A stretch of 63,846 nt of DNA, counting the filler, from Kipferlia bialata (Eukaryota), in assembly GCA_003568945.1 (NCBI GenBank). It is 5 parts of 5 records of this genome, joined end to end, with 100 filler letters (N's around TTAATTAATTAA, not from the genome) between each part and the next. Parts side by side here need not be neighbours in the genome. Positions count along the whole stretch, not along the records: positions 1 to 18,025 come from BDIP01000495.1; 4 more parts are not named here. One strand, given 5' to 3'. Shown in pieces: positions 2,547-63,740 of the stretch (positions are counted from its first letter, which is position 1; each line of letters starts with the position of its first letter). The notes under the pieces are model-generated. The model had not been told where the DNA came from and made no database searches. It saw only the letters and a program-made list of their open reading frames with translations. The position numbers and the translations under genes were made by a program.

Positions 2547-5500
2547 AACGGCCAATTTCACGTCCTGTATGCTGGAAGCAACCCTACTCCTGTGTCTGTC
2601 TTCGGTCTCTCCACGTCTACCCCCCTCCGGTGGGTGTCTGTACCCCTCTCTCTCTCCGACAAGGTACATACACTGGTACAGGGAGATGCCTCTATCATCC
2701 TGGGCCATGCAGCATCTGGCTGTGCTGTGGTGGCACTCTCTGGTGGGCATGGGTCTGTAGATATCCTGTCTCTTGACCGGTCTTCTCCCAAGGTCTCTCT
2801 CCTGCACCTCTGCCGCCTGGCTAGGCCTCTTGGGTACAGTGTGGGTAGGGTGTCCATGTGTGGCCCCAGGGTCTTGCTCTCTGACGCCTCCGGTACCCAT
2901 GTCACCTCTGTCAATGTACGGACAGGGAGTGCCATGGGGTGTGGCATCAGGGGGAGGGCACACATGCCATGCAGTGTCGGTACAGTGTGTATTGCTGATC
3001 ACAACCTCCACGTTGCAGTCAGGGATGGAACATCGGTGTGTGTGGCACATACCGTCTATCTATGCTGTGTGAGGGATGATGCTCTCATGTGGGTAGTAAG
3101 GGGGGCTCAGAGGACCACTCTTTCAACCACACCACTCTCCCCACTCCTCTCCACCCCCCAACTACCTGCCGCGACAGAGTCTCATGCCGTCATACACCCT
3201 ACTCCCCACAGATGGGTTCACAGAGAGAAGGGAAAGTCTCCCTATACCCTCTTATGCCACACAAGCTCTGGTTGTATTGGTGTATCCATTGGCGTCGATC
3301 TCTCCTTAGTTGGGCTGGGTGTGTATGACCCATCTAGGGGGTGGGAGCAGTTGGTGGAGGTACCAACAGGAGTGGCTGTCCTTCCCCATGTGTCGGGAGT
3401 GCCACTGTACCTGGACCACTGTGTATATGCATCTGTGCTTGGCCGACTGGTTAGAGTGGACCTGGGTGCAAGGAGTGCCTCAGCCATATGCCTCTCCCTC
3501 TCTGCCCAGCCACGAGTGGCCGCTGACATGAGTAGCCTGATACTACAGACACCCAGTGGCATCAGACGCTACCCTCTCAACAGGGACATGAGAGTGGGAG
3601 CCCTTACAGTAGAGAGAGTCTCTGAAGGGAGTGTGGCTGGGGTGTTGGTAGGAGATGCTGTGGTTAAGGGTGTAGCAGGGGCAGAGTCAGTGTACTACCG
3701 GGTGGACAGGGGTGTGTGGACACCGATGGATGTAGTCACGTCCTCCAAGACCCGACACAGTAGAGTACAGGTCACATCTCTCCGTGACTTGGTTACCCTC
3801 CTAGAGAGTGGCGTGGCTGAGTCTCTGGATGTCAGTGGTACGGAGGAGACCTGTCTCCATCTAGACACCGCTCTGTCCAACCGGTGTCTAACTGACTGTA
3901 CATTCATGCACTGTAGTATCAAGTCTGCTACCAGAGCTAGTTTCACTGGGTGCTCTTTCGAGGGATGTACTATGGTCAACGCTGGCCTGTCCCAGATGTC
4001 TCTCTCTGCATCTTCTCTCACTGAGTGTGACCTCTCTGGATCAGACCTCAGTAAGGCTACCCTGACCGATGTTAGGTGTAAGGGGGGTAGGCTTCAGGGG
4101 TGTTCCTTCAAGGGCACTTCCCTAGCCAGTGTTGACTTCGGTGGCATTGCATTGAGTGGGTGTGACTTCACACTATCCACATTCACCTCAGTCAGTGTAG
4201 ATGGGTGTGACATGTCAGAGGTGACACTCAATGGGTCTGACCTCAGTGGGTGTAGGGGCCTGACAGTAGACACCCTCCACAGCGCAGTGTCTATAAGAGG
4301 GGCCATACTCTCTGGCCGTGACCTCAGTGGGTGGAATCTTAGTGGTCTCGACCTGACTGGTGTTGTGATGACAGGGACTAACCTCACTGCTTGTGATCTG
4401 TCAGGAACCACTGGTATGACGGCCACACAGCTACACGCAGCAGCGTCCCTCACCAAGGTATCTCTGAGTGGTATGCAGATGGGTGGGTGGGACCTCAGCG
4501 GCCTATGTCTTTCTGGTGCTGACCTGAGTGGCTGTGGTATAGTGGGGGCCAACTTGAGGGACACAGACCTGACTGGTGTCTCGCTCTGCGGTGCCACAGG
4601 GTTCTCAGCAAAGCAAATGAGAGATGCCAAGAGTGTGAGTGGTGTGATGGGTCTTGAGAAGTGTAACCTGACTGGTGCTGACCTCAGTGCCATTGACCTC
4701 TCGGGGCTTAACCTCACTGGCGCCAACCTCTCTGACACTGCTCTCAAGGGGACTAACATCACAGGCACCACTCTTACCGGTGCCATTCTTGTCAATGCTC
4801 CTTTATGTGAGACCATTGGTCTCAGTTGGAAACACATTCGTAATGCTGGCTGCTTAAAGGGAGCCAACTTGGCCAAGAGATGTCTGACGGCTCAGGACAT
4901 GAGTGGTCTAGACCTCAGTGGTGTCTGCCTCGACGGGTGCAATCTGAAGGGAACCAACTTCACAGGGTCCATTCTAAAGGATGTCAGTCTTGTTGGCGTT
5001 AGTCACCTCAATCCCAAGCAGCTGCGCTCTGCTAAGGATGTGATCGGACTCAACATGTCCGGTCTCAATATGGCCTACTGGGATATGTACGGTCTCGACC
5101 TATCACGGAGCAACCTGTCCAATTGCGACCTTTCCGGTGCCACTCTGACCGGGACAGTCCTCACCGGAGCGGACCTTTCCCACTCGACACTTAGACTTAT
5201 TATTGGTCTCACAGAGCGTCAGCTGCGGGACGCTACATCTCTTTAGGGGTGTGACATCAGCGGCATGGATCTCTCTGGTTTCAACCTATCCCACTTAGAC
5301 TTGTCCAACGTTAACCTGACCCGCACTCGTCTACACAATGTCAACTTCAGAGAGACCATCCTGCGAGGAACCTCTTTGACTTCATCCAGTGTGCATGAGA
5401 CGGTTCTCTCCCGTGCTGTTCTGCCCGACACTGCAGTGCCAATGTTAGTGGATAAAATTCGGGGCATAGACTGTGACACTTTCTTCCTCATTGTTCCTGT

Positions 5501-6104: not shown

Positions 6105-9100
6105 TTACTCCTGCACTGAGTATGGGGGAAAGGGACTAGTGACAGGCAGACTCACATCCGTGGCAACAGCAGGTGGTATGGAGAAAGGGGTGGCCTGGTA
6201 AGACCCACACACAGACTCTGGTGGCTTGTCAGTCTTTCTCTCATCGTCTGTGGCGATAGGCCCCACACAGCTTGGGACAAATGACTCCACCAACAATGGG
6301 AGCCCAGCACCAGTGAAGGTCTCCTGAGCGCGGTCGTCAACATCAAAGGCAGCCAGCGCAGCATGAACCACATCAGATACACTCTCGGTGGCCTTCCTGG
6401 CCTGTTGGTTGCTCTTAAGCCTAGAGGCCAGAGCATTGCGGGCTTTCTGGGTTAAGACTCCTGTTATCCTAGTCAGAAATATCGATAATCATACTCTAAT
6501 AATTGACACCGCCAACAATACCTGGTCATGGGGTTTAACGTCCAAAGTATCATGTATCTCATGGGCCCTGAGTGTTTGATCCTGAGAGTTAGATGTATGG
6601 GAACCATTGCAGACAGAGAACACACATACCTGTCTCAACGTTGCAAGAGTCTCACTTGTCCTCTTCACCATGCCTCTCTCTGCCCTGTTGGTGTGTATGG
6701 CCACTAGGCACTTTAGTATGTCCAGTGCACTAGCTGCAGTGGGCCTCTCTCTCGAGTCGTACTGGAGTGAGATAACAACGGACACCACACTCCAAAACAT
6801 AAGCAGACACACTAAGCATAACATATATGTAACCCACCTGCAGCATCAGCCTGATTAGGCTGGAGATGCCGGCGACACCCTCTGGGAGTCAGGAGTGATG
6901 TACTATGTACATACACGATGTACGTTACCAGAGATACAAGGCAGGTGAAATGTATGTGGTACACTACCCACCTGTCTCCTCAAGAGTCAAAGGAGTGATA
7001 GCCTGCTCGTCCTGTGCAACCCTTGTATTAGATGTATATACGAACTATGAAACACTCAATGTCTTTGCTGAAATCGTATGTCACGACTTACGCCCATTCT
7101 TCTTACCTGAGCGCCTCAAGCTCTTGTACGTAGCATCCACCGCCGCAAACGTAGTATGGGTGTCTTCCGGAGATATACTGCGTTAGTGTTCGAAACATAG
7201 TTATCACTGACAAATAATCAGTAATGGCACTAGTGCAGTTCTACCATATCGTATACCTCATAGAAAAGCACTCCACATGCATACACGTCGGCAAGAGTCC
7301 CGTAGGAACCAGCAAATATCTGCGGTTAGGCCCCAATCCATAGCAATATACGTTTGTACTATCCACTGAGAGTTACAAACATATACATACCTCCGGTGCC
7401 CTGACTGTCGGTGTGCCTATCTCTGACTCAGCTATCATGGTAGACTGTCCGTCCTGTAGCATCTTGCACAGACCAAGGTCTATGATTCTGGTGGTGCCGT
7501 CTCTCTCCACCATGATGTTGGCACCCTTGAGGTCTCGGTGCATCACGTTGCACTCAGTCATGAAGGCAATGCTGGTCAGGACCTGGAGGTTGGATTGTGG
7601 CGTGTAGTTCTAGAAACATATCTACGATATACCTGTCTCATGTGCTCCAGTACAAATACTATGGGCACCGCCTTCTGACACCCTGTATCGATCAGGTGTT
7701 GCCTCTTGTCTCTCTTGTCCTGTATCCACTGAGTGTATGCACTGTCACAGTGACGCCCCAACATCTGTGTGTCTCTCTCATCGAGACGTCTGTCTATCTT
7801 GGCCACTTCTGCGGCAGCACTGATGTCTTCCCAAGACTGAGCAGTGATATACGTGCCTGATAGCGTAGAGGCTCTTGCCTGCATGACATCTTGCAGATCA
7901 CAGCCATCAATCACATCAAAGACCAGGACAAGTCGCTGGTGTTAGATTCCGATGAATTGTACATGTGTTGAGATGAAGACCGACTCGGTCACCGAGTACC
8001 TCCTTCTGGTCTGCCATGCTCTCAGTGACTTCTGAGTCTGGACTATCATCAAGGAAGGCCTCTTCCAGCCTGGAGGGTTAGAGTATGCATGACGCCGAGA
8101 GATTATTGTGTATGAAACTGGTGTTGCCACCACATACCTGGTGCAGCAGTTGGGGTATCCTGGCTGGCCCTGTAAGTGAAAGAGGGCATCAGTCTCCGCT
8201 ACCTGACGAACCGCAAAGTCTTTCGACTGAGAGTGAGAGGTGACATATACAGTCCAATGGACTGAGTCCATGATGTATGTACTCGATAGGTCACACCGCT
8301 AGTATTCACCCTCCGTACCAGGCACCTCTGCTCCAAGTCTAGAATGACCTTGACTGCAAACTTCTTCCCGTCGGCCTTCCGAGTGAACTAGATGTGAGTG
8401 CGAGGGATATGCAGTGGTTGTTCTCCCAGACATTTTGTCATCTATGTGGAGGGTCATTCATATTGTTACATCTGATGTCACCTGGCGGACCATCCCATAG
8501 GACCCCTTGCCAAGAGCTACAGCGGTGCGAGTGTATCGTGTAGACAACCTATCGGTCTTGTACCGGCTGTGTGAGTAGTGTGGAAATACAATACCTTAGG
8601 CGAAGACGTTGGATCACAACATCTGATAGGGGTCACGTAACGTGACTCACGTTACCTTCTGATCAGTTCCATGCCCCCTCGTGCCTCCTCCATGTTCTTG
8701 TACCTGGCGGCAGCCTCTCTCCGAATGTCGTGGACGGTGTTGCGGAGGGGCTGCTGCTTCTGAGGTGAGGCTACGCGGTGGCACTCTGCTGTCTTATAAC
8801 TATCTTACTAGGGTACTATTATTGCTATAGCCCACCTTGAATGGCAGAGGCTCGGTATGGTGCAGCTCAATAGGCAGGTTGTCTAGCGCTCCCATCCGAT
8901 TGACACCAGCTACACAACCATCAAAGACTGCCTTTGCTAGGTCTTCAAGCTTGAGTTTCACCGTTGCCATCTTGAGGCCGTATAGCACCACTGCATTGAT
9001 GTGTACATCAGAGACGGCACTTGCTAGCCGAGAGGGTGTCAGGTCATTCACGCTGGGATTAGTAAGAGAGTCACCAATTTAACACTACCATCAAGTAATA

Positions 9101-12100
9101 CTTGACAAGTATCGGACTACCTCAGGTATGCAAAAGGACCAGACCCAGCCTCCAACAGGCCACATCCGTTGGGCAGGCGCTCTGGTCCAGTGGTAAGGAA
9201 GAGCGTGGTGCCCCGTGTACGTGCCTTGGTAGTTACACCGCTGAGGTAGTCTGAGATGTCGGCCGTGAGTGTCTCGGTGGGCACTGCTGCCAGGTGGTAC
9301 AGACTACCAGTGACTAGCTGCTCAGAGGTGGATAGGTACTCCTCACAGCCTATCCCCTCATGGCCTGGGGTGTCTATAGCCCCACACTGCACACACACAG
9401 AGTGGTGGCAGGAGTCACAGCTCTGGTACCCATCAGACTTGGACAGGATGTTGTGGCAGTCAGGTACCACACACATCCCAAGTGGCATGGAGCCTGCCTT
9501 CAGGTGCTTGGCTGCCAGTCTGGATGCGTACTCCTCATACTCAACGGGAGACAGAGACCCCTTCAGGTCCTTGATGTATGCAGTCTCGTGGCACTTGGCA
9601 CAGGTGATAGGCTGGGAGGTGGGGTCTTCCAGTGACACCATGCACTGTTTGACCATGCACCCTTTGCAGAATGGGTGGCCGCACAGGTATAGAGAGTCGT
9701 CAGCCTCTCCGTGGCAGTACACACACCTCCTGTCACACTCCAAGTGCCCTGCTCTCTTCAGAAAGTTGACCAGCTTCTGCTGGACGACACGCATCTCTGT
9801 CTGCTGGGACTCAAAGGAAATGTCACTAACGGCCTCTCCGTTGGATCCACTGTTGGCCAGTATATTCTCTCTGCACTGAGGGAGAGAATACATGTACGTC
9901 AGGATGTTGCGCCTGTTGTCGTCGTACTCTAGACGGCCCAGATGCAGTAGGGACCCACTGTTGATGGAGTCGATGAGCTGGTCTCCCGAGGCACCCTTGC
10001 GTCTGAAGAGCAGTGCTGCCTCAGTACTGAGCTCGATAGTCTGGACTCTAGGCTGGTACTCCTTGGCGGTGTGGGTGTGGATCCTGTTGACAAGTGCGTC
10101 ATAGGTGCCTCTGTCGCAGTAGAACTTGACCCCCTTGATGCGGTTACCAGATCGGTATAGGACCTCCCTGCCGGCACCTCTCTCCCTGCACCATTGGGCT
10201 AACAGGCCATCTCTGTCTGCCTTCAAATCATCCTTGAACAGAACCTCACGGCGTCTCCCGAACACCGCATAGTAGTGAGGAGTTGTCAGCTTAGTCAGCT
10301 CTGCAGCGGCCATGCCACACACACTGGGCACACCAGATATCACAAGGCACGTGGTGTGTACGCCTGAGTCTGTCATGTCAGCCTGAGTGCTGACCCTGAC
10401 TCCCTGGAGACCCAGCTGACTGTACTTGTCGTATACAGTCTGAGCCATCTCATCCAGAGGGTAGCAGTCTGCATGCTTGACCAATACACTGCAGTCGGTA
10501 TGTGATGTATCGGGGTGGCACTGTGTGTATCGATCAGCGTCAGCTGCCGAAGGGAACACAACACTGTAGATGTTGGCAATAGAACCAGTGAGTGCCTCTC
10601 CAGTACTAGTGGTACTCTCAGTGGGAAGTGAACCGCGTAGTGCTGTGGCAGCATTGCTGCAGTCTAGGGTATTGTCGAAGCAGAGGGTAGCTGATGTGGA
10701 CCCATCTGTCTCCGACAGAGTGACATACACAGGGGTGGAGTCACATGCTCTGAGGACATCTGCGTCCTTGGTGCTGCTGGGCATGTCTCGGATGACTATG
10801 CTGGGGACATCAATGACCTCCAAGGCAGTGTATCCCTCACTCGATATGCTCTCTCTCAGTGTGGATATGTCCTGTGCCTGGATGTGCAGTGTAGTGCCCA
10901 GCCTCTGTGACGCAGAGAGGCTGCCAGCGCTCATCTCTGCCTTGGGGTTGGGGACACAGGCACGGGCGGTAGCGGCAGCTGCCTCGTTGCGGAAGTGCAC
11001 CACCCCAGAGACAACCCTGCCCCCCTCTCTAAACAGGGTCCCATACTTCATGTCAGTCTTTGGATCCAGCCTAGCCAGCTTGCAGAGCCACAGGGCCAGG
11101 CTGCGGTCTGACCTTGTCTCTGGGGGCACCCTGTCTACAGTGACGCACAGAGGGTCGTCGGTGGTGGTGACGGCCCTAACCACCCCACCTCCCAGTATCA
11201 CTACGCTGTACTCACCAGCCCCCTCTCCCAGGACTACCCTGTCCTCGTACTCCCTGTAGTTCTCACGCCAGGCACGAACCACACCCACGGCTCTGCGACG
11301 AATGTCGGCACCGCAGTTTGCAGGGGCGTGGATGGCGACTGTACTGGCGTCCAGGTCATGGACCACAACTGCGTGGTACTTGTACTTGGACCTCCGGAGA
11401 ACCCTCTCCAGCTCCAACACAACGGAGCGGCCGACGTTCTTGGCTGTGAAACACACCTCTGTGTTGAGGGTCTGTGCCTTGATCCAGTCCTGCTTCTCAT
11501 AGGAGAGCCATGCTGGGTGTAGGGGGTGGGACATCGCGGCACGTAGCCACCCGTCCTTCTTGGATACGGGGGCGTCGAGGGAGAGAGCCACAAAGAGGGA
11601 GTCTGTGTCCCCGGTGTAGCAGAGCTGTGACTCAGGGGACAGGACACGCATAGTGCCAGATCCGTGGAGCATGTAGACACGAACTGCATCAGCAGAGGGC
11701 ATCATCTTCTGACCTATGTGCTGTGGGTAGGCATAGGCCAGACACCTGCCTATGACCTCTAGCTGATGGGGTGTGTAGTCTGTGGAGACAGCAAGACTCT
11801 GAACATGATCCGTTGACTCCACAGGCTCCCTCTCAGCCACGACCGGGGATGATAACACACTCACCAGTGCCGTACGGGCTGAAGCAAGAACTGTGTGGTC
11901 AAGTCCTGCCTCCTCTGCATACTTGTGTCTACACTGATCACAACCCAAGTGTGACAAGGGATCATCAGACACCACCAGCCCACAGTCACACTTGCCCCCA
12001 GTCAACATGCCTGTGGACAGCCACTCCCTGTATGCCTGGTGGTAAGACTGACTGACCATCTTCTTATCTCAGACTGGAATACACAATGAATGCAGTTATA

Positions 12101-15100
12101 GACGGCTCGTCTAAGACGAGTATTGATAATACCTGGCAGTGGTCGAACAGGTCACTAGAGAGCGACGTAGCCAGCCTCTGCGGGGTCTGGGGCTGGTGTT
12201 CACTGAATATGCTCGATCGTTGGCTCACTATAGCAGCGATCAGGGCAGCCAGTGGACCCTCCCCTTCCTTGGTAGCAAGGTATACAAAGTGGGAGAGAGG
12301 GGCATCAAGAGGGGTGTCTAACACCAGTCGTCCTGTGGGTGTCACCTTCCCATCACTGATGCAACCGTGTAGCTTCAGAGACTCAGTGGTGTTGGCCAGA
12401 CGGTCTTGTGTCACTGTCTTTGACAGACAGGCAATGTCCTGCGTCTCTATGCCCAGCTGGGTCAGATGCAGAACGCTGTCGTCAAGGCTGAGGTCGGTGT
12501 CTGCCATTGATTTCTCTCTTGGAGCGCATTGGGAGGATGAGCATAGTCTCAGGCTGTGTCCATCAGCCGACCTATCAAGCATGCCACCTCTCTCAGACTC
12601 CTCCACTGAGGCAGTGGTCTCACTACCAGCTGTCGTAGTGGGAGTAGTGCCAGTGTCAGACCCTCCACACCGGATGACATCCTCTGCTACAGACCCCTCT
12701 CGCTTAGGTAGAGTGAATGCCCTGAAGAGGGTTGGGAGCTCAACCACCCTGGCCATGTACTCCAGTATGGATGTAGGAGGGTTAAGGCTGCAGAGTACTA
12801 CCACGTAGACATCAGGGCGCTTCACCAGTAGAGAGCGTGCCAGTGTCAAGACCATATGCGCAGATACAGAGAGACTGGACACCTCTATCACCAGTGCACT
12901 GTACTGCGAGAGGGTAGGGTCGGACTTGCACTGGTCCAGGAAGGCTACGGGGGAGAGAGTACTGGAAGTACTGTCACGCAGTGGCATGCCACGTGCTGCG
13001 GTCTCAGAGGAATGTACATGCGCCACCCCCTTGGGGAAGGAAGTGTCCTCCATGGCAAGCGACACAAGACTGCAGTCGGAGACTGGAGTGAGAGGGTGGA
13101 GTCGTATTCAGTCAGGAAACAGATAGGAGTGTCATATGGGTCAGATGGGGATAGATACTGGTTCAAGTAGACTGTGACACACCTGCGTCCACTGCCACCA
13201 CCACAGCCCTCTCTCCCTGTAAGTACGTGACGAGTGATTCTGCAGAGGCCAACTCCTGACTGGGTCCTAGGGTACTAACTGGGGCAGGCTTGGGTGTGGA
13301 AGGACTCCCTGGGATGAGGGAGAGTGTATAATAGACATATCAGTTCCTTTACGCATGTAGTCACAGTATGCGATACCTTTGGGTACAACTGGTGTCGTCT
13401 GCCGCACTGGTGGCGCCAGTCGAGGTGTCTCCCTAACCAGTCCCTCCTGCCACTCAAGGCTGAAGGGTGTGTGGTTGGGACAGGACCCCGGGTTGATACT
13501 GGAGAACTGGTTCTTCTTGAGGTTTCGAGTGTGCACCAGGAAGCGCTGCCCATCATAGAGCACCACCCAGTTGTAGTCCCTAGAACTACCCTTGCGAGCC
13601 TTGGCCCTGATCATCTGGTTCTTGATGCGTGCACAGGCATCCACAATGTCTCCTTCCTCTCCGTCTGCACCCTTCAGTGCCAGGGGTACATCGACCCCTT
13701 CAAGGACAGTGTATGCTCCAACATATCTGTCAAAGGCGAGACCGTGCTTGGAGACAAGGTCATGGTCAGTCTCCCACTCCAGCCTGTGGAGGTATGCCTG
13801 AATCACTTGCAGAGAGACATACACGAACCCGTACTGCCCAGTCACATCAAAGACTACTGCCTGTACAAGCTCTCTGTCCTCGAACACTTCCCAGTCAGGC
13901 AGGAGGTCTGCAATGTATGACCGTACAGCCTGTTCGGCAGCAGCAGCGTCGAAGAAACGGGTGAGGGCCGTGAAGAACACTGGACGGCGGTCAGCCACGA
14001 CGGAGAATGTAGAGACCTCCCCAGTGTCCGTGTCCTGTGTCGATATCTGCCGCGCCTCCATGACTGCATGCAGGTAGTCGTCAGTCTCACTGACCCTCAG
14101 CACCTTGTAGGTGGATGAGCCTGACACACCTGGGTCAGCGACAGGGGTCACTGTGAGTCTACCCATGTCCACCTCTGGGACAGTGGCCAGAGCAGACTTG
14201 GCAGCAGCCACTAGGTCGTCACGAGCCTTCGGACCCTGGTAGAGTAGGTACACTCCCTCACTGCGGGTAGCACGTGCCTTGCGGAAGAGGTTGAAGCGGA
14301 ACGACACGAGCTCCACCCCATAGTCTAGGGGCACATACTCGTTGGCGTGCTCCAGGGAGAACTCCCGCCTGTGCAGTAGGTGGTAGTCGTGAGGGGACAC
14401 AGAAGTGATCATGAGCCGGCGTGATGGCTGCACCACTATGTCGAGAGTCTCTAGCTCGGGGAGGTCAGCCTTGACAGTGGCCTCTAGGGCGCCGGCCAGG
14501 TCCTCTATGTAGTTGACGAAGCGGATCCCATTGAGCACCTGCCGTCCATCCAGGCTGATGGTGACCTCGATCTTGAGGGTCACAACGCACTCACCCCCTT
14601 GCATACGCAGGTTCCTGGGGGTAGGAAGGGGGTAGGTAATACACAAAGTATCCATATGTAGGCAAATACAAATATTCAGACATATACATGAAGATTCAGG
14701 GAGAACTAATCCACCCATCTGTATACATGCATATACATATATATGCATGTTGATCCTGTCCATACCTGGTGACGTCCCTGCTCAGGTTCAGCTCCTCGAC
14801 ATCAGGGGGCACATCCACCTCTGCCACCCCCTCATCCTTGTGGGTGTATGGGCACTGGGGATCGAGGCACCGCCTCTTCCGGCATGTACCAGGGCTGAAT
14901 ATCCTGCCATGCAGTACGGGGGGCAGCACTAGCCTGGTGCTGGAGCCCCTGAAGCTCTTGGCAGGTGTCCTCCTGGAGGTGTTGCCACCCCTGACCTTGC
15001 GTGTAGGGGTAGGGGTAGGGGTAGGGGTAGGGGTAGGGGTAGGGGTAGGGGTGGACGCATCTCTCGTATCGCCAGGATGGGCTGTCTTCTTCGGAGTGGA

Positions 15101-15341
15101 TGCATGACCACCTCCCTCGTTAGTGATAGGGTTCCAGCCCGGGGGATGGATGAAGGGGCACTTGGGCCTTGTGCACCCCAGGCCGGCCTTGCACTCACAC
15201 TGAGTAATGTGCTGGATTGTGATGGTGTTGTTGCAGAATCCAGTCTCAGTCTCCACCGGGAGGTCGGGCCTGCTCAGCCACTGTCCATCTACTACGTACT
15301 TGTACAGGTGGGTGCCGGGTGGGAGAGAGACATAGATGGTC
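6105..15341 (-). CDS. Predicted single multi-exon gene: CBM48 (C-terminal half), CCCH zinc finger, degenerate DEAH/HA2 helicase region, RING-IBR, Ser/Thr protein kinase
   Basis: Manual splicing at GT...(CTNAC-N3/4-YAG-type) introns keeps one frame across ORFs 14696-15256, 13267-14763, 12064-13065, 9117-12059, 8800-9051 and the kinase exons, ending at TAA at 6105. Confidence 0.65.
6630..8566 (-). CDS. Ser/Thr protein kinase domain (multi-exon)
   Basis: LGKGSYGMV, KFAVKVI, HRDLKGANIM, IIDLGLCK, GTPTVRAPE, ADVYACGVLFYE, ERPTAASAL. Confidence 0.92.
9330..9730 (-). CDS. RING1-IBR zinc-binding region (RBR E3-ligase-like; no RING2 seen)
   Basis: CVYC..CGHPFCKGC..CAKC, then CVVPDC..CDSCHHSVCVQC..HEGIGCEEY. 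Confidence 0.8.
12036..12500 (-). CDS. DEAH-helicase HA2/OB-like region, degenerate
   Basis: SLKLHGCISDGKVTPTGRLVLDTPLDAPLSHFV...SDLFDHCQ/AYREW resembles the DEAH HA2 pattern. No intact Walker A or DEAH motif was found upstream. Confidence 0.55.
15007..15052. repeat. (GGGGTA)n hexamer repeat encoding a Pro-Thr linker on the minus strand
   Basis: TPTPTPTPTPTPTPT in ORF 14696-15256. Confidence 0.9.
15210..15341 (-). CDS. CBM48 / AMPK-beta-type glycogen-binding domain, C-terminal half
   Basis: TIYVSLPPGTHLYKYVVDGQWLSRPDLPVETETGFCNNTITI matches the LPPG-YKF-VDG-W...G-NN pattern. Confidence 0.8.
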
Positions 15342-15431
15342 CTGAGGGTGAGAGAGGGGGCTTGTCTAATAACAAGAATAGTGGAGAGAGAAACAGAGAG
15401 AGAGAGAGAATAGAGGGGTGGATCTGAGGCA

Positions 15432-15466
<35 letters not shown>

Positions 15467-15545
15467 GAAAGAGGGGGGGGGGGGGGGGGGGATAATACAC
15501 AGACTATCATTGTAGACTTATCATGATACTGCAGTCGTTATATAC

Positions 15546-16107
15546 CTATCCAGTTCCTCCTGCCTCTGTCTGTATGACATGGGTGCAGATGGGGGTAGGG
15601 GGTGGGCAGTGATGGGCCTGGCACGGCGGAGGTAGGTGTCAGTCACTTGCCTAGTATGTTAGACAATATCCATAAGACATATATACGTCATATATTCATA
15701 GGTGTCGGTCACGTGCCTAATGGAAGAGTGGTATATGTTTATCACTTCATGAACACTGTATCTAAAACAGATATATATACCTCCCCGGCTCCTGCGTAAC
15801 AGCTGGAGTGTGTGTTATGGGTCAAATATACATATACGAGGCTGCTCATTACTCTTACTATGACATATATACTATCACACTCTGTACCTCCCCGGCTCCT
15901 GTCTGACTGCCGGTGTGTGTGTCATGGGCCTCTGACCAGACACACCCCGGGCAGTGCCAGGTCTGGAGCCTTAAGGTGAGATGTATGAATGACCCAGTAC
16001 AATATTGAGAGAGCTGGCCACTGCCAGGTGTCTAACAACAAAACGATAGAATATATACCTGCGGTTATGGGTCTGTGCTGCAGTCTGGCCTTGTCCAAAG
16101 GGTATGT

Positions 16108-16144
<37 letters not shown>

Positions 16145-17994
16145 TAAAGAGACAGGTACAAACCTGCCGTTATGGGTCTGTGCTGCAGTCTGGCCTTGGC
16201 TGTACTGGCCCTGGACCCACCCCTGGACCTGGAGGGCATGATGCCACCTAGTCCAGCACCTAGAGGTAAGGGAGAGGTATTTATATATACTGGAGAGAAA
16301 GGGGGGGGGGGGGATGTGGACCTGGAGGGCATGATGCCACCCAGACCGGCGCCTGAAGGTTAATGCATATACATACATACATACACATGGATATATATAT
16401 AGAGAGAGAAACAGAGAGAGATAGAGGGCATGATGCCACCCAGACCGGCGCCTAGAGGTCAATACGTACACATATACATACATATACTAGTAGATATGTA
16501 AGTGAGTGAGAGAGAGAATCTGGAGGGCATGATGCAAGGGAGAGATAATGACACAAACACTAAGGTATACATACTGGTTTTAACATACACTTATCAGTTA
16601 TGTCCTACCTAGCTCACTGAGTTCACTGTCACTCCCCTATATGAACTATATATATACATATACTAGGGTATGTAGTATATGTAGTATACATGTATATCCA
16701 TACCTAGCTCACTGAGCTCACTGTCACTGCCCTCGTCCTGGATGAAGTCGTCATCATCATCCATGACACCTGAGAGTGAATATGGAGAGAGAGAGAGAGT
16801 ATACGTAGTATATAGTGTGTAATACAGCATATATTATATATTACCTAATTCAGCGAGCTCTGCCTCGTACTCATCGTACAAGAGGTATATACTACACCAT
16901 ATATACATATAGGTATGTATATATATACTGAACTATACCTAGCTCAGCCAGCTCTGCCTCGTACTCATCGTACTGGGGGGACTTGGGGGTCTCCTTGGCC
17001 TAAGAGTCAGAGATATAAACTCACAATACTGTAATACAATTGAATATTATATAGAAACAAAACCGCAATGGTGTTTATGTTGTCTGCTCATCATAGACAT
17101 CCTCAGATATGTATATCATTACAATAGATATATACATACATATATGTACATATATGTATATATATGTATAGTTTACGTGTATACACACCTTTGGCATCTT
17201 TGCTGTCTGCTCATCGTATGCATCCTCATCGTCATGGGGGATGGGGGCAGTCACAGGCCTTGAGGTTAGTACATGCAAATATACACTAGCATATAGGAGG
17301 GTATACATTCGTATTGTATAGGAGTGTGAATATTACATGCATCCTCATCGTCATGGGGGATGGAGGCAGTCAGAGGCCAAGAGGTAAGTATTGGTATTTG
17401 TAAATACAGTATATATGCTCAGACACACAGATATACACAGTATACTGTGGTGATACCTATAATCGAATCCTCCTGCCACCCTCACCACCCTCCTGGGTAT
17501 CCTGTTAAATTCTTAATACATATATTCATTATAGAATATCCTACTAATAATATAATGTTTACCTGTAGTCAAACCCCCCTGCCACCCTGACCACCCTCCT
17601 GGGTATCCTGTTGTGGCTGGTCTCCACTAGGGGTCTGCCTGAAGGGTGAGACACATATACACACATATATACATGTATAGAGAGAGAGAGACAGACAGAG
17701 ATACTGGTGTGGCTGGTCTCAACTAGGGGCCTCCCTGGGTGAGAGTGGGTAAATATAGGTGTATGTGAATGTATGCATATATATATATCATGTGTGAAGA
17801 CACATAGGTTCACAAAGAGTCACTCAATTTGGAGTGTAGTAGTGACAATCACCTGCATTGCCTGGCTTCCTGTATCTAACATTTGGGGACTATATGGCAT
17901 ATATATACATATACATACACACGTATCTCTATTCTTATACTCACCTGCATTGCCTGGCTTCTTGCCCCTCTGACCCTGGGCAGCAGTATCCATC
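15546..17994 (-). CDS. Internal exons of a low-complexity protein of unknown function (recurrent RPITA/RPVTA/RPGTA motifs, acidic stretches)
   Basis: Phase-compatible short exons, e.g. GRPLVETSHNRIPRRVVRVAGGFDYR, PVTAPIPHDDEDAYDEQ, AKETPKSPQYDEYEAELAEL, KARLQHRPITAG. Confidence 0.65.
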
Positions 17995-18025
17995 CTGAGG
18001 GTAAAGAGGGTAAATATATATATAT

Positions 18026-18125
18026 NNNNNNNNNNNNNNNNNNNNNNNNNNNNNNNNNNNNNNNNNNNNTTAATTAATTAANNNNNNNNNNNNNNNNNNN
18101 NNNNNNNNNNNNNNNNNNNNNNNNN
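18026..18125. other. Artificial contig linker N44-TTAATTAATTAA-N44
   Basis: Six-frame-stop spacer, repeated identically four times in the window. Confidence 0.98.
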
Positions 18126-36140: not shown

Positions 36141-36240
36141 NNNNNNNNNNNNNNNNNNNNNNNNNNNNNNNNNNNNNNNNNNNNTTAATTAATTAANNNN
36201 NNNNNNNNNNNNNNNNNNNNNNNNNNNNNNNNNNNNNNNN
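36141..36240. other. Artificial contig linker
   Basis: N44-TTAATTAATTAA-N44. Confidence 0.98.
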
Positions 36241-47361: not shown

Positions 47362-47461
47362 NNNNNNNNNNNNNNNNNNNNNNNNNNNNNNNNNNNNNNN
47401 NNNNNTTAATTAATTAANNNNNNNNNNNNNNNNNNNNNNNNNNNNNNNNNNNNNNNNNNNN
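47362..47461. other. Artificial contig linker
   Basis: N44-TTAATTAATTAA-N44. Confidence 0.98.
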
Positions 47462-47671: not shown

Positions 47672-49230
47672 TCACAGGCCCTGAAACAGGGAGGGACTAT
47701 TCACAGTAGAATTGTCATCGTTTGAGTACCTCCCTACAGCCATGCCCCTCCGTCTTTCCATGAGTGCCGCAGGTGGGTTCCACCTCACAGGGGCAGGAGG
47801 GGTGAGGGTAGTGTCCTCCCAGAGGCCTGGGGTCAGAAGCATAGTAATTGTCGCAATCCTGTATATGCATATGTGGTATATATATGGTGGTTCTACCATA
47901 TATGATAGAGACTATTTGATAGTAGGGTCGTGTCCTCCCAGAGGCCTGGTGTCAGAACGATGGTAACTCAATCATGTAAAGGTATATGTGGTGGCTCTAC
48001 CATTCTGGTTACCTTCTGATAGTGATTCTTTGACAGTGGAGACGCTTCACTAAGACAAAGCCATGTACAACTTGATGGATCATATTCAGTTAGCATTACC
48101 TCTCAGTGTGAACCTCCCCTCTCCTGTCACCCAGAAAGCATCCGACACAACCCCATACACCCCAGTAGACCTCACTCTCGGGCCTCCCTCGCACGTCCCC
48201 TCCTTCCACTCTGCCACGTCTGGGTCAAACAGGGCATATCTAGTGGCAGTAGGCCCTGGTTCTGTGGCAGCAACCTGAGCCTCCAGCATACTTCTAGTGA
48301 TATGATAGTGCCCTTGCCGTCTGAGTTTCCTTACCAGCTCTTCAGAGGCAGTGGAAGCTGGCATCTCTCCCAGACGCACGAGTACTCCATCTGACAGTCA
48401 GCGCGCTAGGTATTCGTTCGGTTACAACGATGATAGCGGGAGACAAGAAAGCCAGAAATGATTCCATTCCTTCACTATACCTAGCAAAGCAAATGAGTAT
48501 CTCTAGGAGAGTCCTAGTAGAAGTACAGGAATAGCATTCTTTCCTGGCACAAAGTCATAGACACAATACCAACGACAAGGCAAGACACTACTAGCAAAAG
48601 TTCATGAGTCCTTGCATTACCTAGCACAAATGAGTACACACAGTCCCACTGAGGAAGCCCCGGCACAGCGGTGATGCCCAGAGTGGCAAGGTCAAGTAAA
48701 CAGAGGGTGGGGTTGGGGTGCTCCTCTTCTGGGATCTCCCTCTCCCTCTCCCCCTCCTGCTCCATACCAGTTGCGGTGTACACTCTCTCGTGGTGGGGTA
48801 GATGAGAACTGAAGTGAACAGAGAGTGCAAATGATTTGACAGGAGAGAGTGTCTGAGTCTGGACGAAGTATCATGGGCATTATGATACAATACCTATGAC
48901 AAAAGTAGTATTGCTTTAAAGTCCACAGTCACGCGCGCAAATATACTCAGAACAGAAAGGCGGTGTCAGCAGAAGTACATGCTTCCTACCTCTTCAGCAC
49001 CATGTACACCCTGTCCCCCACTTGCCCTATGCACCTTGACAGCTTGTACCCACTGGGCAGAGCCACTCTCTGCACTGTCTCTACCACTGAGAGGTCCGGT
49101 GCAACAGTCACCACACTCAGACAGTTGACAATGTCAACTTGACATACACCCTGTCCCCCTTCTCCCTGATCTGCTCTTCACTGAGCCCCCCTATAGTGGC
49201 ACGATACCTCATCGCATATTGGTTCCCATC
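47672..49230 (-). CDS. Multi-exon hypothetical protein or decayed gene
   Basis: Coding-like exons (PTLCLLDLATLGITAVPGL; RYALFDPDVAEWKEG) with splice signals. Not fully reconstructed. Confidence 0.35.
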
Positions 49231-50248: not shown

Positions 50249-51068
50249 TAGGTGATAGCCACCCTCTGGTGAGTATCTAGGCGAGCATAGACCACACCCA
50301 CATACCAGGGTGGATGGGTTGTATGCTTAGGTCAAGATAGGGTCAAGTGGTGATGGAGTGTAAAACTACAATAACAATACTACACAATGATATCGGTGGC
50401 TCTATATTTGTACAATATTCATTATACATCCCATATGTCGAGGATATGGAAGATACAGTAATGTGGCAACTACTTACTTCTGTCTGGATGCTCTATCCAC
50501 GTTATCCCTGTGCGTCTACGCATCTCTTTGAGCAGCGCATCTAGGGTCTCACATCTCAACTCCCACAGACCGGGAGGGAGACCTGGAGGATAAGGACCAA
50601 GCACATAGGTCCTCCCATAACACATACATATGCATAGACTATACTGGATACTTTACATATGCGCTTGTACACACCCTGTATTAACACACGTAGATACCTG
50701 AACTTGGTCTGTATGACTTTTACACATCCTTACTATGTCCGAACTGTTAGACTTATATACCTGAACTGGGTCTGTATGGCCCTGGTCCTCCCATCACACA
50801 AACACACATATATATAGTATACTGTATACTATTCTTTATACACACATACACTCTTGCTATGTCCGAATTGTTGGAGTTAGATACCTGAGCTGGGTCTGTA
50901 TGGCCCTGGTCCTCCCTTCACACATACATATGCATAGAGTATACTGTATATTATACATATGCACCTATACACACACCCTTACTATGTCTGATGTATACCT
51001 GAGCTGGGTCTGTATGGCCCCGGTCCTCCCTTGTGGTAGTGGTACAGGTACTTCCGAGAGTCGATCAT
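50249..51068 (-). CDS. Small spliced gene of unknown function starting MIDSRKYLYHYHKGGPGPYRPSSG/LPPGLWELRCETLDALLKEMRRR
   Basis: ATG at 51068 after an in-frame stop. The phase-1 donor at 50998 joins the only open frame of the exon at about 50478-50582. The 3' end is uncertain. Confidence 0.5.
50608..51030. repeat. Tandem array of exon 3' end + donor + intron head (spacings 114, 124 and 63 bp)
   Basis: ACCTGA(G/A)CT(G/T)GGTCTGTATG with the exonic part starting at 50999, 50885, 50761 and 50698, and similar intronic sequence between copies. Confidence 0.9.
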
Positions 51069-51547
51069 TGGAAGATGTGGCAGTTAATAAGAGATACAGA
51101 GAGACAGTGTGGTTGAAGCCCTCTAGACTACAATCCTTCAACTTGAGGGTCTCAAGAATCGGAGAATCGGAGAAGGGATTGACCAATAGAGAATCTCCTA
51201 ATTGTGAAGAAGTCTCAATTAAGCTTACCCAAGGCATTGTTAGCAATGCTGTCATAGCATCGTCTGAAAGAGAAACAAGAATACAGATGTGATAAGTACC
51301 ACAGCCGTAGAATTTATGCAAAAGACTGAGTCATATATGCTATATAATGAGTCAGTTTCCATGACCGATTCGATCGGTATGTCCAGCAGATACCAGTGAC
51401 AGGAAAAGACTCAAAGCAACGTGTGTTGAGTCAAATCTATTTGACAATGTCGCATGACCCACGAGTGACATATCAACCCTTGTCACACACACATTACATG
51501 AACTGCTCCATCCACTCGTTGCCTGTCACGAGACCTGTGCTGCACAC

Positions 51548-53373
51548 TATGTAGGTGTGGCCCTCCTTCTCCCCAAGGTGACGGAAGGCGGCAACCTCAC
51601 TCCTGGTGACACCGCCCTGCTGTCAGCTATGGCGTAATATTTGAATTATAGACTATCACAATACACACACACACAAATGGAAAGAGAATATTTGCATATA
51701 TACCCATATATATATATATATATATGCAGGTGTGCTGAGTACGTACCACAATGAACACCACACTGGCTGTCTGATCCCCGTAGGCGTCTCTCTCTCCCCT
51801 GGGCCTAGACGCCTCTCTCCCACTCTCGCTATCCTTCTCAGAGAAGCCACGGCTAGCACCCTGGTGGTCAATTAAAGTCAAACAGAGTCATTAATAGTCA
51901 ATATGGGTACCTTGAGTCCCTTGAGAAGTCTCCTGACCTCCCCCCTCTCCTTGAGGAATGAGGTGATGCCACTGGCAATGTTGTCCTGTAGTGAGAAAAG
52001 GGGGAAGAGAGAGAGAGAGAGAGACAGAGACAGAGATGGGAGGAAGTATATAGAGAAAATGTATAATTTCAAAAGAGAGAAAACATTTACATATGTATAT
52101 ATATATACCTTGAGGTTCTCGCTATCTCTGGTCCTCTCTCTCTCGAGGTCTCTCTCCCTCCCTCTCTCCAGCTCATGCATGGCAGACACAACCCTGGGAA
52201 TAAGGGTCTAGACGGAGAGAGAAAGTAAGGGTGCAGATGGGGAGAGAAGGCCACCAAATGAATACCTGGTCGTCATGGGTGCACACACATATATAGACGT
52301 ATACATTTATGCTCAAAACATATATACACATACTATTGTAAAAAGTATAATGTACACTAATAATCATTGTATGTTATACACTACTATATATACCTTGTTG
52401 TCATGGGTGCGTAGTGGCTGTACACACACATATATATATATTAATATATGAATATATATTCTCCATACATTATATATGTATAGTATATATATATATATAC
52501 CTTGTTGTCATGGGTGCATAGTGGCTGTAGACGTATCCCTCGCCCTTGGGCTTAGAACTGGACCCATCCCCTGGGGTCAGTATATACGAATTCACATTGA
52601 ATATTGTCTGGCCTCGTAAACATAAATGCCCACATCGTGTATATGATACATAATATATCTATACACAAATATATTATTGCAGAGACTAAACATTCTGCAC
52701 TCACCCTCTGAGATTGCTGCCACGTAGTCGTACTTGGTCAGGTGGTAGTGCCTCCTGGGGGTAAGGGAGGGGAAATGGTATATGTATATACATAAATACA
52801 TATGTATATACATATATATACATGTATATAATACTATGTGTGTTAAAACAAGGAGTTAAGTCAGGTGGTAGTGTCTCCTGGGGGTAAGGGAGAGAGAAAG
52901 AAAGGGGGAGAGAGAGGGAGAGAGAGAGAGAGTGGTAGTGCCTCCTGGGGGAAGATGGTAATTGAGACTATATTTCAGAAAAGAGAGAGTAACGACAGTC
53001 GCTGAATCCAGTGACATTATGACACCAAAGCAATAAAATATAGTCATATACTAATTACTTACTAACTCAGACAGACCATACAATACCCTATCCTACCTAG
53101 TCTGGTCCCACTTGTCCCCATAGCCAAGGGGGGGCACGGGGATCCTGAGGGTAAGGATACTAGTGCATAGAGATACGAGTATATATATATATATATGAAG
53201 AGTCCAGGGGCACAGGGATCCTGGGGGTGGGAATACTTCCATACTCGTATTATCCTATGTACAGAGATAATGGGTGGGGGATCCTGAGGCTCAGAATACT
53301 ACCATATTTATATATATCCTATGTAAAGAGATAATGGGTGGGGGAGACAAATAGGGAGAAGAGAGAGAGGGGG

Positions 53374-53408
<35 letters not shown>

Positions 53409-55096
53409 CTACCTGGAGTCCTGCAGGCTCAGCAGGCCAGCAATCTCAAGGTTCCTGAGGTGAGGGCTTGTGTGGAATGAACAGAACAGAAAAGTATAGT
53501 ATACTGAACAAATAGTCCAATTCGCTGTACCTGAGGGCACTTGCTACTGATGCCCCATAGCATGACACTACTAGACCCACGGCACGCTGCATGGTCTTCC
53601 TGTCAAGGCCTCCATCCACGACAGACAGGAGGCAGAGGGCCCTGGTATTAGAGGAAACGACACACAATAGTCAATATATACAGACGAATATATATATATA
53701 TATTGTGACGTATATCTAGGCCTCCATCCACCACAGACAGGAGGCAGAGGGCCCTGGGCGTTAGTATACACATACATGACATAATAATACACATATGTAT
53801 ACATAGACAGAGAGAGAAAGAGAGAGGATATCTAGGCCATCATCTACTAGCAGACAGAGGGCCCAGGATATGATAAAGCAGGACGGATCAATTAAAACAC
53901 TGGTACACAACTTCACATGTATATATATATATATACTACATACCTTAGCACTCTAGCCTTGTGCTTGGGTGACATGGTGGGGTTGGTCTCATCCTCTCTC
54001 TCTCTCCCTCTCTCTCTCAATATATATATACATATAAACATACATATATTCTATAAAATACCTCAGCACCCGAGCCTTGTGCTTGGGTGACATGCTCGGG
54101 TTGGTCTCGTCTGCCATACAGGCCTGGATCACATCCTCCAGTCTATCAATGTACTTGTTGCCCTGGGGTTAGCATTTTAACAACCTAGTAACAATAATTA
54201 CAGTGCAGTCAGATTGTAAATCACTCTCTAATCTGTACAATGTACTTGTTTCCCTGGGATTCGCATGTCACCAACTGAGTAAATACATAACACATATATC
54301 TGTATACACGATCCCAATACCTTCTTCTCCCCCTTCAGCAGGATCGATGACTCGTACTTGTGCAGTGCGGGCAGGAGGGCATCCTTCTTGACAAGCTTCA
54401 GGATGTCCCTGACAAAGGAGGCAAAGTTAGTAAGAACCTTGGATCAGATACATATAGACAAAGAGAGAGAGAGAGAGAGAGAAGGATGTCTCTGACAAAG
54501 GAGGCAAAGTTGGTAAGGACCTACAGTAAGAGCAAGAGAGAGAAAAGGATGCCCCCAAATGACCGAAGGAATAACAGGTAACGTCTTTAGAGTAGACACA
54601 CAGAGAGCGAACTATCGTTCTCATAATAGTAGTACATACCTGCACGTGTATCCTGCTGATCAGCCTCTGCTGTCCCTGCTGGGCAGATGAGGTCTCGAGG
54701 TCATTCTCCAGGCCCTGGGGGTTAGCTGCACTATATGACTCGCGCTCATATGTATCACATTATGATATGACAAAAATCTCTGAATCTCGCTCTATAGGGT
54801 CATTCTCCATATCCCCTGGGTGCAAGAAGTGTCATTGATAGCAAAGACAAAAGGAATGACGACTATTCCGCCATTATATCCACTAACCTGCACCCTCTTG
54901 AGTATGGCAAAGTATGGGTCGAGGAATACAACTATAACGAGGATTCAAAATAGTATATTAAGAGTTGGAAACATATATATCTATATCTCTCTATATACTC
55001 CCACCTGCACCCTTTTGAGTATGGCAAAGTAGGGGTCGAGGTCAAGGAAGTGGTTGTCCTGGGGTGAGATGACATATATACACATACATACATATA

Positions 55097-55135
<39 letters not shown>

Positions 55136-56949
55136 ATATATAACATATATATAAATATGTACAACAAACAACAGTATATATATGTGTATGTGCACTTGTA
55201 TGTGTATGTGTCTAGGTGGTTGTCCTGGGGTGAGACGACATAATAAGGCTAACTATAAATACATTTGAATGAAAATGTTGATATAAACTCATACCTGTAA
55301 GCTGTAGAAGACATACTACTCTCCTGCGTGCTTTCATAATCACAACAACACAAGTATCCAAAGATCTCGTAAATCCATACCTGAATGCTGTGGAAGATGG
55401 GGTTGTTGTTGTTGATGCAGCAGGAACGGGTCTTGTCAGCAGAGACCTGGGGTGTCAGAAGGGAGATACACACACATAAACACATATATATATCCATAGA
55501 GAGAGAGAGAGAGGGAGATAGGAAGGAACGGGTCTTCTCAGCAGAGACCTGGGGGGGAGGAAGGGAGAGAGATACGTGGACACGATACAGGGAATAGGAG
55601 GCACCAAGAGAGAGAGAGAGAGAGAGAGAGGGTGTGTGTGTACCTGCAGGTGACACATGGAGTGTGCACAGTTGGCAAGGGACAGGTCATGCAGAACACC
55701 TGGGGTAAAGGGGGGTAGAGAGAGAGAGAGAGAGACAGGTCATGACCTATGTCTTACTATTTACACTTCTCTGCCTCCTACCTCTGATTGTGTCCTCTGT
55801 GTGCAGAATGGCCTACCTTCTCTCACATACACACACACAGTCTCTCTCTCATTCTATATGTCTCACTATATATATATATATATCTGCCTGATACCTGTGA
55901 TTGTGTTCTCTGTGTGCAGCATGGACACAGGATCAAGGGCCCTGAAATAAGGGGTGTAGAGACAGAGAGCATACAATATACATTGAATAGTTGGAGGGTA
56001 AAGGCAAGGAGTCCGGGACCCCGTACATATGTATAAATTTGAATATACACATATTAATATATCTATATATATAATCATATATCCAAATATATATACATGC
56101 CCACCTGTCCACGATGTACAGGTCGATGCCGCTGCCCTCCATCTCTCTCTCCCTGCTCTCGGCAGAACCAGAGTCACTGGTGTAAGGGTGTAGATTGGAG
56201 GGAGAGAGATAGAGACACTCGGCAGAACTAGAGTCACTGGTGTAAGGGTGAAGAGGGAGGAAGAGAGAGAGATAGAGATTCCTCCGCACACATCGTACAG
56301 TGTGGCGGTTTATATAATGTGAAGGCCAAAACACTAATATTTGAACACACTGGATATTACTCATATAACCATACACATGCCCCTGGCTTCTGTGTACACA
56401 TGGTGCAGTTAAGATAGTGAATATAGTATGATTTACGATAAATATGAATATATACAACATGAATATATACGATGAGAGAGATGAGTAAGAAATATAAATA
56501 ACACATATACATACCCCTTGGCCTCTGTGTACACATCGTGTAGCTTCGATGCAATGTCACCCTTGGCCATCACTCTGTCGAAGCCTGGGGTGGGTAAAGG
56601 GTGTAGGGGGAGAGAGAGAGCCTCAGACAACAACTACGTGTGTCTAGGTACTTCCGTCGATGTATCTCTCTAACTGTCTGAGGCCCAGGGCACTGTGAAT
56701 GTGTGTATATATATATTAATATTCATATATATATATCATATATACATATATACCTCCATCAATGTATGGGGTATATATATAAATATACCTCTTTTCACAC
56801 ACATACTTATATTTAGACATGAATGTAAAATATATATACCTCCGTCGATGTATCTCTCTAACTGTCTGAGGCCCAGGGCACTGCTGTAGAGGGAAGAGGT
56901 GTTGGTGTCGGTGGCAATCTAGGATGACGGGTGGGTAATAGTGAGAGAT

Positions 56950-57000
<51 letters not shown>

Positions 57001-59811: not shown

Positions 59812-59984
59812 CTAGGATATATGAGGGAGAGAGAGAGAGAGTCAGATATTAGATATATACAGTCAGAGTCACAGAGACACAGACAGACAGACATCCAATG
59901 GGATAGAGAGAGACGGTATGGAAGAAGGAGAGATGGGGGGGGGGGGGGGGGGGGGGGGGGGAGAAAAAAAAAAAAAAAAAAAGA

Positions 59985-60084
59985 NNNNNNNNNNNNNNNN
60001 NNNNNNNNNNNNNNNNNNNNNNNNNNNNTTAATTAATTAANNNNNNNNNNNNNNNNNNNNNNNNNNNNNNNNNNNNNNNNNNNN
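59985..60084. other. Artificial contig linker
   Basis: N44-TTAATTAATTAA-N44. Confidence 0.98.
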
Positions 60085-63000: not shown

Positions 63001-63696
63001 ATAGTATATACTATATATACCTAGTGTCTGTCTTGAGTGGACTGTCACTCAGCATCAGTCCGGCAAAGACTAGGTCCTTCTCAACCTCACTCCTCTTCTT
63101 GGTGCGGATGACGGCAGATCTGACGGTGAGACTAACTTGTCACTAATCGAGTAGAGTCTTGTCACACACCGTGTACCACTCACCCTGATGACAGGTCTGT
63201 CTGTCCACCCAGTCTATCTTACTTGTCACACAGTATAATGCAGTTAATATATAACGTGTAGCACTCACCCTGATGACAGGTCTGTCTGTCCTCCCAGTCT
63301 GCGGTAGGCAAGGGCAATCACCCTGTAGCCCTGTCTGGAATGGTCAGATATGAAGAAAACACCCATACATACCAAAATTATGATAGATAACAAAACAGTA
63401 ACTCTGAAGCCGTGTCTGGAGGGGTCAGAGAGAAGCCGACAAGGATGATATAGTATATCAAGAAAGATGATTGACATTTTCAGAGGGTATATATTTTCCT
63501 GGTAGCCTTGGACAGCTCTGCCTCGACCCACTCTGACACACAATAAGAGACAATATAGAAGGTATATATAGATAGGAAAGGTAGATATAACTAACCTGGT
63601 AGCCTTTGACAGCTCTGCCTCGACCCACTCTGGTGTCTCAGTGCACATGGTGGAGATGACCTCTGGTGCTCCCTGATTATTAATGTATATTCACTC

Positions 63697-63740
<44 letters not shown>

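Follow-up and report, generated by a model that had tools for sequence, protein, structure and literature searches.

Partial exon copies with an excess of silent differences in the introns of three genes of Kipferlia bialata

The window analysed here is a stretch of 63,846 nucleotides from the Kipferlia bialata assembly GCA_003568945.1, composed of contigs joined by runs of N around a 12-base linker (18026-18125, 36141-36240, 47362-47461 and 59985-60084), and the minus strand of positions 15500-18000 holds a gene of short exons separated by GT-AG introns, here called gene A. Public reads from two runs (X1 and X2) of one sample, both in the form of contigs, were compared with positions 14600-18030. 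One X2 contig of 1807 bases (depth 69) matches in eight pieces, all without other letters, and, because its joints are GT-AG, can be regarded as a spliced transcript, the run itself not being recorded as RNA. This single contig confirms 8 exons in one open frame, namely three upstream exons (17994-17945, 17638-17563 and 17258-17189), the exon ending in ...EAELAEL (16939-16999; contig piece 16937-16998, 0 other letters), the exon ending in ...SELSEL (16704-16769), the exon AGLGGIMPS...RPITA (16164-16259) and the exon at 15888-15969, all with splice sites, together with 15546-15650, the last exon under the transcript contig within the compared stretch. Past 15545 the transcript contig continues in letters that match nowhere in 14600-15544. 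A further exon at 15340-14790, encoding an AMPK1_CBM domain and a CCCH finger, has no transcript-contig depth and is only a putative member of gene A, while a long run of C at about 15430-15490 possibly marks a mis-join of the assembly. At 17971-18025 a contig reaches a depth of 979, double that of the rest.

The introns of gene A contain partial copies of the adjacent exons, hereafter echoes. Five lie near the upstream exons (17869-17853, 17734-17704, 17506-17457, 17377-17337 and 17105-17081). For the remainder of the gene, an initial annotation made from the sequence alone had described a series of echoes differing mostly at silent positions, and each of these was recovered on the minus strand. 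The last 35 bases of the ...EAELAEL exon, encoding YDEYEAELAEL, recur at 16845-16879 on a DNA contig, followed by their own GT and with 3 silent and 0 replacement differences; the 30-base EGSDSELSEL donor echo, also with its own GT, lies at 16609-16638 (2 silent, 0 replacement). Two GAGLGGIMPS acceptor echoes of 28 bases (16424-16451) and 36 bases (16317-16352) each keep their own AG and carry an identical set of 4 silent changes with 0 replacements, and the KARLQHRPITA donor echo (35 bases, 16059-16093; 1 silent, 0 replacement) is present in the assembled sequence, outside the DNA contig cover and thus not read-confirmed. The 41-base donor echo at 15781-15821, which is on a DNA contig, carries 4 silent changes plus two altered codons, M>I and R>T (3 bases). 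A seventh echo in this interval is an identical 16-base fragment from the start of the AGLGGIMPS exon, without acceptor (16520-16535), and just beyond the interval an 18-base acceptor echo at 15699-15716 shows 1 silent and 1 replacement difference. Within the interval 14 of 17 distinct echo-exon differences are silent, whereas decay of the echo alone would give 25% (p 1e-6) and additional silent-site drift of the exon 40% (p 5e-4).

The echoes of gene A are real DNA. An X1 contig of 876 bases and depth 446 spans 16301-17120 in two aligned pieces, both with 0 other letters, between which a 70-base repeat is skipped in register; others cover 15504-15974 (depth 355, 1 other letter) and 17176-18000 (depth 456), depths comparable to those of nearby echo-free X1 contigs (372 and 503). 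The stretch 15975-16300, into which the echo at 16093-16059 falls, is without a listed X1 contig. Among the X1 matches listed for gene A there are no substitutions set apart as variants, no joints that delete an echo, no half depth and no alternative arms. Furthermore, the longest exact run common to a gene A exon and its echo is 30 bases and none reaches 31, so that a 31-mer graph could not have stitched these echoes together. Thus, the possibility raised by the initial annotation, that the tandem arrangement consists of haplotypes joined by the assembler, is not supported for gene A, since read-derived contigs carry exon and echo in tandem. These DNA and transcript checks cover gene A only, and X1 may be the source data of the assembly.

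With respect to which copy is used, the transcript employs the first donor and the last acceptor in 7/7 gene A introns, and its full exons and outermost splice sites imply that all gene A echoes are intronic. When silent differences serve as markers, as had been proposed, the one spliced contig of gene A carries only the letters of the exon copy, echo letters being absent over its 8 exons to the last codon. Neither a second isoform contig over gene A nor, in X1 contigs over 14600-18030, a second allele with echo letters in an exon was found, and exon bins have a single depth, to be read with the limit that contigs can drop rare variants; the strain may be haploid or homozygous at gene A. No deleted DNA form or hybrid exon, as programmed elimination between pointers would leave, was seen among the X1 matches listed or in the transcript. 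One intron of 444 bases contains two donors and three acceptors, of which only the outermost ones are joined in the transcript; such a choice suggests exon definition, in a genome whose introns are very short.

Self-alignment of the window reveals dozens of similar pairs, mostly 80-140 bases apart and mainly within 52000-63846, where two further minus-strand genes were modelled by means of a simple finder and hand curation; both models are without RNA confirmation, and their exons join without stops. Gene B (60085-63784) is P-type ATPase-like, presumably of the P5 type judging from its motifs, and comprises 11 modelled exons and 16 echoes; one exon matches Pfam Hydrolase weakly (E 0.014). One assembly contig ends within a third echo copy at 60100-60085. 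Gene C (51498-59811) belongs to the Sec1 family, with 28 modelled exons and 26 echoes, and its last exon matches Pfam Sec1 with an E of 5e-6, below the curated cut-off. In the modelled frames, echo and exon differ by 34 silent and 7 replacement changes in gene B and by 20 and 16, respectively, in gene C. The simple gene finder mistook 11 echoes for exons.

When every exon was compared without gaps with the introns next to it, leaving out a 95-base stretch in one gene C intron, 55 echoes were obtained in genes A-C, located on 41 of 88 exon/adjacent-intron sides and on 3 of 5 outer flanks. As only 10 of 1980 non-adjacent exon-intron pairs contained a match, the echoes are not chance matches. They are clustered by gene, being present on 41/88 sides in genes A-C versus 2/142 in a BEACH gene and a kinase gene, for which the terminal 70 bases of automatically modelled exons served as queries. 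The introns of genes A-C have 2.5-4 times the TA-run density of those of the BEACH gene.

Elsewhere in the window several further observations were made. At the 5' end of the BEACH gene contig, acceptor echoes at about 35982-35943 and 35895-35855 and a short donor echo at about 35658-35642 surround one exon, and the remainder of the 60-exon BEACH model shows a single 13-base echo at about 27120; a protein search matched two distant BEACH proteins. At 50608-51032 four repeats of one exon end, whose intron flanks can be aligned, apparently form a younger array, and at 47805-47992 about 20 exon bases recur in an acceptor echo, the upstream flank of which is alignable. A 13-base donor echo at 56765-56750, below the search threshold, has two silent changes by eye. 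Short echoes are undercounted. The window also encodes an intronless pentapeptide-repeat frame of 899 aa (2547-5243, plus strand), the modelled protein kinase gene, which is free of echoes (6156-9052, minus strand), and an IBR-domain frame of 983 aa (9120-12068, minus strand) for which a protein search gave no homolog.

All 55 echoes have the geometry of a direct tandem across one exon-intron junction. Each of the 31 downstream echoes matches the 3' part of its exon, 26 reaching the exon end and keeping GT, and each of the 24 upstream echoes matches the 5' part, 20 keeping AG. Echoes measure 12-55 bases, with a median site-to-site period of 105, and the spacers between exon and echo are approximately as long as whole plain introns (median 71 vs 74, KS p 0.42, none shorter than 41); no remnant of a missing splice site was found in these spacers. 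Inner ends resemble an acceptor in 0/31 downstream echoes and a donor in 2/24 upstream echoes (scores above the null 90th percentile), and in 6/9 multi-echo sets the echoes have a common inner end within 3 bases. Ten exons are flanked by echoes on either side, and in 4 of them (17562-17638, 56840-56918, 60659-60727 and 63596-63672) the halves come within 5 bases of each other and jointly reconstitute the exon; upstream and downstream types do not co-occur (Fisher p 1.0). In one case (62518-62228) an exon and its two echoes each have a different synonymous form of one codon. Three structural origins were also considered: a spacer representing a whole intron that ends in a broken acceptor is rejected, the junctions scoring below null; echoes starting at an exon-internal AG are unsupported (42% vs 28% within 4 bases, equal by 8-10 bases); and insertion of the working exon into a split older exon is rejected as a general account (permutation P 0.15).

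The excess of silent differences reported initially is borne out by the comparison of each echo with its exon. In the main set, in which alignments were extended as far as the in-register splice site under a rule that ignores codon position, 55 echoes totalling 1719 bases have 83 silent and 32 replacement differences (pS 0.207, pN 0.024, dN/dS 0.10), whereas a frame shifted by 1 or 2 makes only 16 or 8 of the 115 differences silent. It had been stated that dead copies decay equally at all codon positions, but this is the wrong null, because silent sites of the working exon drift as well, whereas decay in a dead echo affects every position; the corrected expectation is a dN/dS of about 0.5. This value is rejected with p 1e-13, or p 3e-8 with a tenfold transition bias, and by genes A, B and C each alone (p 3e-6, 2e-8 and 0.013), gene C being weaker with a dN/dS of 0.21. 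For a neutral echo about 147 replacements would be expected, compared to 32 observed. The result holds when shared differences are counted once (73/105 silent, p 3e-6 vs 47%) and with unextended alignments (54/83 silent, p 5e-7 to 7e-4, the latter vs 47% being the harshest variant). Eight of the 32 replacements are found within 6 bases of the inner end, as opposed to 2 of the 83 silent changes, and some of these replacements may be alignment overrun.

The echoes are not uniform. Divergence ranges from 0/30 to 6/50, several echoes carry replacements only, and 12 of 43 long echoes are without any silent change, while the 9 echoes without a splice site show 5 silent and 6 replacement differences, a bias that is not significant. 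Some are decayed, with an internal deletion (57179-57150) or a lost donor (63535-63499 and 56405-56380). Nor does pN increase with pS from echo to echo (Spearman -0.27, p 0.08), which indicates a mixture.

The differences between echo and exon resemble in several respects those between functional coding sequences. The more-used codon stands in the echo in 35-37 of 69 silent pairs, from which random silent change differs (P < 1e-4), so echo codons are as preferred as exon codons, and silent sites show no drift towards AT (32 AT>GC, 27 GC>AT), with introns at 38% GC and a GC3 of 0.66-0.73. None of the 29 changed echo codons is a stop, and replacements are milder than random ones (BLOSUM62 +0.21 vs -0.64, p 0.003). 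A YTNAY branch motif precedes 16/20 echo acceptors and 42/47 real ones, compared to 31/255 other intronic YAG, and the motif of an echo acceptor differs in letters from that of its own exon. Donor scores average 5.0 in echoes, 6.6 in real sites and 3.0 in other GT, and acceptor scores 8.4, 10.5 and -3.2, respectively, with the real scores inflated by self-training. Past the splice site, intron-flank identity drops to the background of unrelated introns within 6-12 bases, and flanks can be aligned in 13/50 echoes (about 2.5 by chance) and not at all in 37/50. The 13 alignable flanks differ at 60/405 columns (15%), like silent sites, and the exon parts of the same echoes have 15 silent and 4 replacement differences in 370 bases, replacement sites being about 1.4% different. 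Similarly, the exon ending at 62472 and its first echo have an alignable intron start with 5/35 columns different, next to 4 silent and 0 replacement changes. Judged by sequence comparison, this pattern of divergence looks like that of two working alleles of one junction. Of the initial description of these copies as synonymously recoded, therefore, the silent excess stands, while the exon letters of the one transcript and the equally preferred echo codons fit copies of other working alleles better than recoding.

The echoes are widespread in the window and statistically strong, and a mechanism can be inferred for them. On balance it seems likely that they were copied from diverged working alleles by out-of-register recombination and have no function of their own. 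As DNA that is skipped by splicing is not directly selectable for protein, the silent bias must date from a time when the sequence served as an exon elsewhere. Under the proposed model, a slip or end-joining event in a TA-rich intron would initially duplicate some 60-140 bases across an exon-intron border. Selection would remove duplications that result in a complete additional exon or in a rival splice site nearby, and those surviving would contain half an exon and one splice site only, tolerated on account of whole-exon definition by the spliceosome, which would thus select the first donor and the last acceptor. Subsequently, an echo could pair with the exon of the homolog, which is possible because introns differ between alleles and exons do not, and unequal crossover or conversion would add, remove and rewrite echoes. 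Echo-exon differences would then be allele differences, at a silent diversity of about 0.2, plus slight decay, and the echoes would record past outcrossing or hybridisation. The common inner ends in 6/9 sets favour growth of arrays by unequal exchange over independent captures, and conversion within one chromosome cannot, by reckoning, explain the data, as it would erase silent differences and bring dN/dS near 1. A silent diversity of about 0.2 would be extreme for a eukaryote, and 30-50 bases is short for homologous-recombination pairing. Spacers of whole-intron length without splice remnants and the 37/50 non-aligning flanks are unaccounted for by recombination between alleles. No relatives carrying donor alleles were found in metagenome scans, in which four loci had a glycogen-binding-domain match and 0 near direct repeats, and the two inspected look intronless and prokaryote-type.

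The same evidence bears on several other explanations. It is unlikely that the echoes are under present protein selection, through occasional use in minor transcripts or as backups that would stand in for the exon end when exon-echo annealing repairs a break in the TA-rich spacer. A dN/dS of 0.10, near-intact donor and acceptor scores, homology that ends within 6-12 bases of the splice site and common inner ends that could mark a functional boundary would all suit such a role, but the inner ends lack the splice site required for inclusion, the transcript contig matches its 8 exons with 0 other letters, there is no second isoform contig over gene A, and no DNA joint deleting an echo occurs among the X1 matches listed. 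Selection through rare collapse would moreover, by estimate, need a population diversity near 1, as silent differences would otherwise be erased. A maintained backup, in which spare, correctly coding exon ends with functional splice sites about 100 bases off would let annealing heal breaks in the TA-rich intron with the protein unchanged, is distinctly unlikely; if true, non-translated DNA would be selected for its amino-acid sequence. Donors that were not alleles but lost paralogous or homeologous copies from an old genome merger or segmental duplication appear quite improbable. They would account equally well for the allele-like divergence, for the clustering by gene or region (41/88 vs 2/142) and for the absence of the donor from the sample; on the other hand, one merger predicts one depth, in contrast to the spread from 0/30 to 6/50, and two silent states at the codon where three are seen.

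That the echoes are ordinary tandem duplicates on the same chromosome, dead and decaying, with the silent excess arising from exon drift and alignment choice, is very improbable. The reading predicts 38-47% silent differences, compared to 72% in the anchored set, and even 47% is rejected by the distinct (73/105) and unextended (54/83) counts; it also expects the flank to be as alike as the exon part, whereas identity is gone after 6-12 bases. Some echoes are plainly decaying, to judge from the deletion, the lost donors and the 12/43 without silent change, and gene C has a dN/dS of 0.21, yet the reading is rejected unless the gene models are wrong, that of gene A being RNA-confirmed. Finally, an assembly artefact, with the arms of heterozygous bubbles placed in tandem, is likewise very improbable. 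Stitched allele arms would look alike, the window is a string of short contigs, an exact run of at least 31 bases is common to echo and exon in 8/55 cases, X1 may represent the source reads and the contig check is confined to gene A; nevertheless, contigs assembled independently read through exon, spacer and echo with no mismatch, their depth being that of echo-free DNA, no alternative arm occurs among the X1 matches listed, and no 31-base sharing exists in gene A.

Intron DNA skipped in the mRNA and yet bearing the signature of coding selection is surprising under any explanation. If the echoes are indeed copies of diverged working alleles, fragments of other alleles are kept in the introns of a single genome, and diversity and past outcrossing would be readable from one clonal assembly. 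Echoes also offer a route by which introns of 70 bases could grow modularly to 200-570 bases, and the introns that bear them represent natural tests of splice-site choice. From a practical perspective, they mislead gene finders and break short-read assemblies, as is probably the case in the present one, given the contig that ends within an echo copy and the doubled depth at 17971-18025.

Background on recombination in related organisms is available, although relevant here only if the host is a fornicate: metamonads are described as lacking canonical end joining and fornicates as lacking Rad51A, with sex unobserved, in the accessible text of one study (PMC8516963). A fornicate paper infers diploidy from k-mers, and neither "duplicat" nor "tandem" occurs in its available portion (PMC5874029), just as "duplicat" does not occur in that of a second one (PMC6679479). 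In the literature searched, which comprised titles and abstract openings outside supplements and most subscription journals, no description of a half-exon echo architecture was found. Tandem exon duplication with mutually exclusive splicing, as presented in the accessible parts of two reports, involves whole exons with both splice sites that enter the mRNA (PMC9013439, PMC8373072). The likeness consists of a nearby direct intronic copy of an exon whose amino-acid sequence is kept (echo dN/dS 0.10). Echoes, in contrast, are half exons with one site, are absent from the gene A transcript contig and occur solely on the side where they create a repeat across the junction.

Intron gain by tandem genomic duplication at AG|GT likewise involves a duplication around splice-site-like sequence that is hidden by splicing, the new intron beginning with the copied start of the following exon and finishing with the copied end of the preceding one, whereas echoes lie inside an existing intron, at an intron-length spacer from the exon. 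Ciliate pointers are direct repeats of coding sequence around internal eliminated sequences, with an AT-rich spacer; the echoes differ in that removal takes place by GT-AG RNA splicing, no deleted DNA form or hybrid exon having been seen. A closer parallel is provided by unequal crossing-over or ectopic conversion between short direct repeats, in which tandem copies likewise come from different homologs and arrays grow and shrink, and one-sided invasion with end joining is among the recombination routes across heterology. To our knowledge, there is no known case in which unequal exchange builds a standing intron architecture at almost half of the exon borders of housekeeping genes. Recombination across heterology yields duplications in worm balancers and in mouse cells, introns being unmentioned in the accessible part of that report (PMC5783719). 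In conclusion, the echoes are likely to be a variant of duplication by unequal exchange.
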